64,000 nt of DNA, taken from IMG/VR virus record IMGVR_UViG_3300017565_000002, positions 96,001 to 160,000 of that record; one strand, written 5' to 3'. Made by a program: the position numbers and the translations under genes. Source of the stretch: a virus (lineage: Duplodnaviria > Caudoviricetes). Below, piece after piece: positions 47,368 through 48,420 of the stretch; the stretch's first letter is position 1, and each line of letters opens with the position of its first letter. The notes below the pieces were generated by a model. That model worked only from the letters and a program-made list of their open reading frames with translations. It had not been told where the DNA came from and searched no databases.

Positions 47368-48420
47368 ATGATGAAAACACTAAAACTATCGAAGAAGAAC
47401 CTATCGTTGCTACAGGAAAAGGCAAACGCCGGAGATCAAGAAGCCATTGAAACGTTGGCCCAATATGAAGCTCAGCAAGCAGAGAAGGAGAGAAAGAAAC
47501 AAGAACGCAAAGAAAAAAGACTCACAACGGTGCGTAGGGACAATCTGTCCGCACCGCCGATGGACTATGTCAATTTTGAAGATCAGCAACTGGGGAGCCC
47601 AGTTGAAAAGCTATCCAAGGATTTGAAAGGACAAGTTACCCAATTGACCATTGAAGATATCAGATATCTGGTCGATTCTTATTATCAGATTCAGAACAAC
47701 AGAATCCGTTCTTCCAACCAAGTCAGGGCGTCGGAGGAGTTGGGAGAAGCAAATGGTGTTCTGGTGTGGATCAACGAAAATAATACACTGCTTGAAAATA
47801 ATATTAAGAAAGCGTTGGATATTTATACAGACTACACACCAGTTGGTCGGTGGTTGAAATCGATCGTTGGTATTGGTCCCGTGTTGGCCGCTGGGTTACT
47901 CGCCCATTTAGATATTACAAAGGCGGAAACCGCAGGCGCATTTTGGAGATTTGCAGGATTAGACCCGAGCGTTACATGGGACAAGGGACAAAAACGTCCG
48001 TGGAACGCAGACTTAAAGACACACATGTGGAAGATTGCCGATTCGTTCGTCAAACAATCGTCCCGTCCATCGGACTACTATGGGAAGATTTATCTTGGAC
48101 GTAAACGGTATGAGCAAGAGAAAAATGAAAAGGGCGAGTATAGGCTAAGAGCCGAACGCGCTTTACAGCAGAGAAAATTTGTAAACGAGACTGACACAAA
48201 GGCAACCTATGAGAGTGGGAAGATTACCAATGGACATATTGAGTCAAGTGCTCGCAGATATGTCGAGAAGATCTTCTTGTCTCATCTACACCATGTAATG
48301 TATTTACATCATCACAAAATCGCACCACCGAAACCTTTTGCTATCTCCATTTTGAACCATGCACACATGATTGAAGTTCCGAATCTGGAAGCACACTATG
48401 ACGATCTAATCAAAAACTGA
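47368..48420 (+). CDS. tasA: TIGR-associated Nop-domain protein without nuclease domain (TasA-like; IS110 C-terminal homologue; not the Bacillus biofilm TasA)
   Basis: Coiled coil DIRYLVDSYYQIQNNRIRSSNQ; HhH LKSIVGIGPVLAAGLLAHLDI; FWRFAGLDP; PWNADLK; SARRYVEKIFL. No N-terminal DEDD RuvC motif. Directly abuts a dual-repeat array. Confidence 0.85.
   Translation: MMKTLKLSKKNLSLLQEKANAGDQEAIETLAQYEAQQAEKERKKQERKEKRLTTVRRDNLSAPPMDYVNFEDQQLGSPVEKLSKDLKGQVTQLTIEDIRYLVDSYYQIQNNRIRSSNQVRASEELGEANGVLVWINENNTLLENNIKKALDIYTDYTPVGRWLKSIVGIGPVLAAGLLAHLDITKAETAGAFWRFAGLDPSVTWDKGQKRPWNADLKTHMWKIADSFVKQSSRPSDYYGKIYLGRKRYEQEKNEKGEYRLRAERALQQRKFVNETDTKATYESGKITNGHIESSARRYVEKIFLSHLHHVMYLHHHKIAPPKPFAISILNHAHMIEVPNLEAHYDDLIKN

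Follow-up and report, generated by a model that had tools for sequence, protein, structure and literature searches.

The tasA locus of an AR9-like phage

The 64,000-nt stretch analysed here (the window) belongs to the complete genome, 215.8 kb long and AR9-like, of a soil jumbo phage. At the locus under study, an early-type promoter precedes a gene for a Tas protein, tasA, which is in turn followed by a dual-repeat TIGR array and an intrinsic terminator (Table 1). The complete genome holds no second Tas gene and no second array, and a literature search on TasA in jumbo phages returned no paper. The endolysin indicates the host only to the level of Bacillota. Elsewhere in the window, a phage GroEL-like chaperonin (41800-43611) has its nearest relatives in phiR1-37 and Staphylococcus jumbo phages, at 21-24% identity, and two proteins consist of ~24-aa tandem repeats (50540-51334 and 52719-53942), with more paralogs near the genome ends.

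Table 1 Features of the tasA locus, numbered by position in the window
Feature	Position	Strand	Remark
SigA/sigma70-like promoter match, 11/12	47265..47292	+	such sites in the region at shuffle expectation
Divergent early-type promoter motif of the 113-aa gene	47281..47289	-	back to back with the tasA promoter
AR9-type early (virion RNA polymerase) promoter core ATATATTAT-N6-G, predicted +1 at 47332	47317..47332	+	consensus match
Ribosome-binding site AGGAGG	47351..47356	+	in-frame starts further downstream lack one
tasA, 350 aa: Nop domain without nuclease, plus N-terminal arm	47368..48420	+	NF052498 over cut-off; fold alignment
Arm part 1 (aa 1-33): basic start and helix-GD-turn-helix hairpin	47368..47466	+	53% identical to homolog
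Arm part 2 (aa 34-55): Lys/Glu/Arg-rich helix without hydrophobic heptad	47467..47532	+	20% identical, variable length
Arm part 3 (aa 56-80): conserved low-confidence segment, RR/SAPPM/EDQ motifs	47533..47607	+	68% identical
TasA core (aa 81-341): coiled coil 95-156 and Nop RNA-binding domain	47608..48390	+	
Wedge-loop region after AGLDP (aa 196-213)	47953..48006	+	without IS110 catalytic SG
Guide-processing site equivalent, F324/H331 at SpTasH Y289/H296	48337..48360	+	
Dual-repeat TIGR array: 13 units preceded by a partial one that overlaps the stop codon	48419..48929	+	
Intrinsic terminator, 13-bp stem and T run	48941..48977	+	

The tasA promoter core follows the AR9 early promoter consensus (PMC5312081), and 22 of its 26 copies are intergenic in a genome that is 92% coding. 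An inverted repeat (47275-47331) spans this promoter and the early promoter of the gene that faces away from tasA (46909-47250, minus strand), whose 113-aa product is without family matches and which is missing at the homologous locus described below. Since the near-consensus SigA-type match overlaps the divergent phage promoter, the host polymerase might also read tasA; the match itself may be a by-product of this AT-rich promoter.

The array alternates edge repeats of 10 nt with loop repeats of 10-12 nt around paired spacers of 8 nt (two of them 9 nt), giving units of 36-39 nt, seven of the 13 being 38-39 nt long. The same repeat type also lies beside about 35 related TasA loci. A higher order is visible in the full units (48437-48929), which fall into three blocks of three units followed by two blocks of two. 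Unit 13 repeats unit 11 exactly, spacer A is the same in units 1, 10 and 12, and the 12-nt loop repeats mostly follow one edge variant. With its terminator, its paired 8-9-nt spacers and a unit close to the ~36 nt typical of dual-repeat TIGR-TasA systems, the array has the form that defines this class.

The protein fits the same class. It scored 199 bits against the NCBIfam Tas model NF052498 (cut-off 100), and VIA-align superposed residues ~93-343 on TasH (21kl, Z 19.1) and TasR (9mty, Z 18.9); in profile and fold comparisons alike, TasR and TasH match the core only, starting at residue ~93-95. The IS110 model NF033542 failed, with 26.5 bits vs a cut-off of 140, and PF01548 is absent. The core has a Tas-type Nop domain with a coiled coil, no RuvC or HNH domain at its N-terminal side, and the aromatic-basic unwinding pair, W221 and K229 aligning to W203 and K211 of SpTasH (residue roles after bioRxiv 10.64898/2026.08.11.744272). 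We therefore class the protein as a true dual-repeat TasA, distinguished by an uncommon module at its N-terminus. The names attached to the matching families, 'endonuclease' for NF052498 in NCBIfam and 'transposase' for phrog_4285, are wrong labels for TasA.

A homolog search returned 3423 matches; with two exceptions, the best 120 measure 262-314 aa and cover the core only. A separate group of 19 TasA-like proteins (P0126-P0144) is far longer, at 636-815 aa; 17 of them have an intein and/or LAGLIDADG Pfam match, which suggests that homing inteins have invaded TasA genes.

An N-terminal arm on a nuclease-free protein

The sequence-only reading of this DNA had held that the Tas protein carries neither RuvC nor HNH, and this was borne out. 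The AlphaFold2 model contains no beta-strand anywhere in the protein; its N-terminus consists of two helices (residues 9-20 and 24-53) and a low-confidence stretch (54-76), and residues 1-91 are devoid of His, Cys and Trp. HNH nucleases depend on a catalytic His. A RuvC/RNase H fold requires a five-stranded sheet (PMC11208158), so that an N-terminus without strands and without His is unfit for either domain. The all-helical segment therefore resembles neither the N-terminal RuvC fold of TasR, active or dead, nor the HNH domain of TasH, and the two hallmarks of IS110 recombinases, a DEDD RuvC and a catalytic Ser-Gly loop (S241-G242 in IS621; PMC11208158), are both missing. The lack of this loop after AGLDP had likewise been read correctly, though it is common to every homolog examined: SG occurs in the wedge loop of none of the best 120 of the 3423 homologs, and TasR and TasH are also without it, which makes its absence a family trait.

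TasA is the solo Nop class and the most common Tas effector (PMC12045711), and a TasA was reported to bind target DNA and to repress transcription reversibly in E. coli (bioRxiv 10.64898/2026.09.09.750476). The nuclease-free state of TasA is hence already known, and the protein probably never had a cutting domain. The earlier proposal of a bind-only, programmable repressor or roadblock accordingly appears right as a reading of this protein and describes what had been published for TasA.

What sets this TasA apart is the length of its N-terminus. In all, 84 residues precede the invariant D85, whereas the other 118 homologs have 16.5 at the median and no more than 40, so that the arm is about 65-70 residues longer than a TasA N-terminus usually is. 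It is charged and helical, as the sequence-only reading had described it, but ends near residue 80 rather than 90, as conservation places L82 and D85 in the core. The arm carries a net charge of +1, and 67% of residues 33-50 are charged; this by itself is unexceptional, since an equally charged 18-mer occurs in 12 of 206 phage ORFs. The i/i+4 salt-bridge pattern of a classic single-alpha-helix showed no enrichment over shuffles.

Only one other protein with the arm was found, a 347-aa homolog (P0002) encoded on a phage contig of 33% GC between Thg1 and SpoU-like genes and accompanied by its own 13-unit array with different spacers. No gene is common to the neighbourhoods of the two loci. A profile search of 1.84 billion representatives yielded no third carrier, an exhaustive HMM search with the arm recovered P0002 and otherwise short repeat matches only, and no further copies came from a region search, a viral contig scan or the phage's own ORFs. 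The two proteins are 72% identical overall, 79% in the core and 49% over residues 1-80. The corresponding pN/pS values, which are rough since synonymous sites are near saturation, are 0.16 for the core and 0.50 for residues 1-80, the latter dividing into 0.46 (1-33), 0.73 (34-55) and 0.35 (56-80). The arm is coding and under some selection, given this ratio and the homolog's own ribosome-binding site and same start. The Lys/Glu/Arg-rich helix, as the most variable part of the arm, looks like a spacer and probably is one.

Three other accounts of the arm were rejected. A mis-called start is countered by a ribosome-binding site at Met1/2 only, by the same start in the homolog and by selection on the arm. 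Guide units do not extend into it, the unit pattern finding only the 13 array units genome-wide. Nor is it a capsid-targeting leader: the late-protein leaders observed end in I-x-E-G or begin with Met-Phe, neither of which applies to tasA, and the promoter motif at tasA is of the early, not the late type.

In a quick maximum-likelihood tree, the arm-bearing pair formed a fully supported clade on a long stem branch (0.71) within the short TasAs, with TasH far outside. As the pair nests among short TasAs, the simplest account is that a nuclease-free ancestor gained the arm. The idea that the extension replaces a nuclease therefore stands by position but not by history. Unrelated N-terminal additions of ~30-50 aa, charged or resembling leucine zippers or coiled coils, occur in other TasAs (L014, L043, L006:2904-4031, P0127 and P0131), suggesting that the TasA N-terminus gains helices repeatedly; the L006 protein comes from another jumbo-type phage and is highly diverged.

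The arm lineage also differs from other TasAs in the core, with changes at near-invariant positions (R294S, H292E, V300E and G224A). Both arm-bearing proteins have Ser at R294, an acidic residue at H292 and Glu at V300, all within the helix (aa 288-301; 48229-48270) that bears R297 and K301, the presumed box C readers as mapped by spacing. These three changes may co-vary with the arm, in a sample of two sequences. Phe at the position of the processing Tyr is found in 31 of 117 homologs, and TaTasR has Trp there. Together with F324, the core substitutions could lower activity; R294S is weakened as a sign of inactivation by the active SpTasH, which has Ala in both the R294 and the G224 column.

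Proposed mode of action and role of the arm

Taken together, we consider the locus likely to be a dual-repeat TIGR-TasA unit that would act as a non-cutting, RNA-guided roadblock, the arm being a later, non-catalytic addition in one jumbo-phage lineage. Judging from the promoter motif, the virion RNA polymerase would transcribe gene and array early, as one RNA. By analogy with the family, the array would be cut within the edge repeats into guides of 36-39 nt, one of which would be held by a TasA dimer; the two spacers, A and B, would pair with opposite strands of the DNA over about 16 bp, and the bound complex would leave the DNA uncut, posing a reversible roadblock to transcription. In the phage genome we found no exact guide target and none with one mismatch; eight sites with two mismatches compare with 9.3 +/- 3.1 in shuffles. 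Self-matches are thus at chance level, which points to non-self targets, and with no matching site in the phage the roadblock would most likely be placed on host or competing-element DNA. Limited scans for such targets were uninformative: a duplicated 16-nt target had no match in 14 Bacillales genomes and 13 matches in IMG/VR, about chance by our estimate. An exact site, composed of spacer A and the reverse complement of spacer B, would by our estimate arise by chance about 0.002-0.02 times per guide and genome.

In the proposed complex the arm would consist of a small hairpin carried by a charged helical spacer, with a conserved motif linking it to the core. Under the roadblock model, and as a matter of judgement, the arm's most favoured role, given somewhat less than an even chance, is self-association or an extra grip on DNA or guide at the position that the nuclease occupies in TasR and TasH. 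Docking of another protein and near-dispensability, ranked equally, are both possible but clearly less favoured, and any further role seems quite improbable; this ranking draws on two sequences whose synonymous sites are near-saturated. A role within the complex is preferred over a partner because no gene travels with the arm and published TasA works alone. A structure prediction of the arm together with the core dimer scored 0.00 and carries no weight either way.

The best-surviving alternative, which takes up the docking of a partner in trans suggested by the sequence-only reading but is unlikely in our view, is that the arm recruits, i.e., that it binds a phage or host protein such as RNA polymerase, a nuclease or a chromosome factor and brings it to guide-specified DNA. 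The dead RuvC of Nop5, for example, recruits fibrillarin. The arm does occupy the effector-domain position of the scaffold (PMC12045711), and dCas12f recruiting sigma-E provides a precedent (PMC13472631); in addition, a conserved hairpin and a conserved low-structure motif around a variable spacer would be a typical docking layout, and the hairpin resembles protein-interaction repeats. Against recruitment, the two arm-bearing loci have no common neighbour, the unit is bounded by a promoter and a terminator of its own, and published TasA needs no partner for repression. That the arm serves as a genuine docking module for effectors, perhaps descended from a sigma region-1.2 hairpin, and brings RNA polymerase or another enzyme to guide-chosen DNA appears less probable still; were it so, the locus would represent a natural TIGR-based recruiter or activator instead of a plain roadblock.

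A decaying or inactive system, in which guide binding or processing has been lost and the arm is incidental, would account for the long stem branch, the losses at conserved positions, the Phe in place of the processing Tyr and the many 38-39-nt units. We nevertheless regard decay as improbable, since the core remains under the strongest constraint (pN/pS 0.16), since ORF, promoter, array and terminator are all intact, and since the homolog retains an array of its own.

Slightly less probable again is fusion to a sigma fragment, in which the hairpin would stem from region 1.2 of an alternative sigma factor or an HTH_16 protein and contact host RNA polymerase, leading to RNA-guided activation or polymerase trapping. 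The arm has no significant match as a known domain in Pfam, NCBIfam or PHROGs, no sigma match is listed by Pfam or NCBIfam, and an Atlas feature search was empty. Foldseek returned weak matches to three phage sigma factors (E 3-9), the Atlas cluster matched by the arm includes Sigma70_r2/HTH_16 members, and a Bacillales HTH_16 HMM scored 8.6-8.7 bits on both arms, above all 300 shuffles and all but one of 1352 phage windows. After correction for library size the HMM match is not significant, in agreement with Pfam. The hhalign comparison with HTH_16 reached 72% over 23 columns of the helix-GD-helix motif; true sigma profiles reached 5%, whereas TPR-like repeats (77%) and kinase-tail repeats (96%) matched as well or better, the last value being circular because the query itself selected those repeats. 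Moreover, the alignments stop before region 2.2, the main core-binding surface, whose helix is absent from the arm and in whose place a charged low-complexity helix follows; a profile search found no sigma-like ORF in the phage. The hairpin is best read as a generic motif, with a likeness to sigma region 1.2 that appears non-specific.

A cryptic DNA nuclease or recombinase in the arm or wedge loop is the least probable of all: it is suggested by the family names through homology only, whereas the arm has no strand, His or Cys, PDB and BFVD structure searches with the arm alone gave only generic helices (best Z 6.1), and the IS110 serine is missing.

Relation to known systems

Returning to the non-cutting roadblock as the preferred reading, the closest published system is the dual-repeat TIGR-TasA of FpTasA (Faure et al. 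2025, PMC12045711), likewise a solo Nop protein with a coiled coil from a viral host, with a downstream dual-repeat array of ~36-nt units, box C CCA-type ends and a terminator. Unlike FpTasA, the phage protein has about 65-70 extra N-terminal residues and substitutions such as R294S, and its array has AT-drifted loop repeats, mostly ending in TCA and some 12 nt long, with no adjoining tasParB. The MbTasA and dead TasR repressors described by Xu et al. (bioRxiv 10.64898/2026.09.09.750476) belong to the same class of nuclease-free, RNA-guided DNA binding and repression, which was demonstrated for MbTasA in E. coli with reprogrammed guides. The same study notes extended N-terminal regions in many TasA clades; these are described as disordered and belong to stem-loop clades, whereas the phage TasA has a dual-repeat array and an arm with a predicted conserved hairpin. 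PlTasA (bioRxiv 10.64898/2026.08.11.744272), a dimer, is also nuclease-free and has the aromatic-basic unwinding pair, and its N-terminal segment is not resolved in cryo-EM; it uses a stem-loop guide and 9-bp heteroduplexes, as opposed to the 8-nt spacers of the phage array.

SpTasH and TaTasR (PDB 21KL, 9W04 and 9MTY) share the core fold (Z about 19), the W/K pair and the processing His, and SpTIGR also has 8-nt spacers; both proteins carry HNH or RuvC and cleave DNA, whereas the phage TasA has neither domain and a Phe at SpTasH Y289. More distant are the IS110 bridge recombinases (IS621, PMC11208158), which resemble it in their coiled coil and PF02371/Nop domain (Z 12.8 to ISCro4) but differ in having a DEDD RuvC, the S241-G242 loop and a bridge RNA in place of a tigRNA array. 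Activation by dCas12f-sigmaE (PMC13472631) is alike in concept, as a dead RNA-guided binder that recruits transcription machinery; there the sigma gene is linked, while the phage has no sigma-like ORF by profiles and the arm no region 2.2.

Engineered TasA is a weak activator platform, and placing an activation domain where TasR has its RuvC abolished function (both bioRxiv 10.64898/2026.07.30.739400), which makes a natural small module at the RuvC position of interest. If the arm strengthens binding or docks a partner, it would show the solo Nop scaffold gaining non-nuclease modules. In comparison with these systems, the arm is the only unusual feature and the locus a minor variant of the published TasA class. 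It offers a complete and self-contained TIGR-TasA unit of the early type, in the genome of an AR9-like phage, usable for studying TasA during infection.
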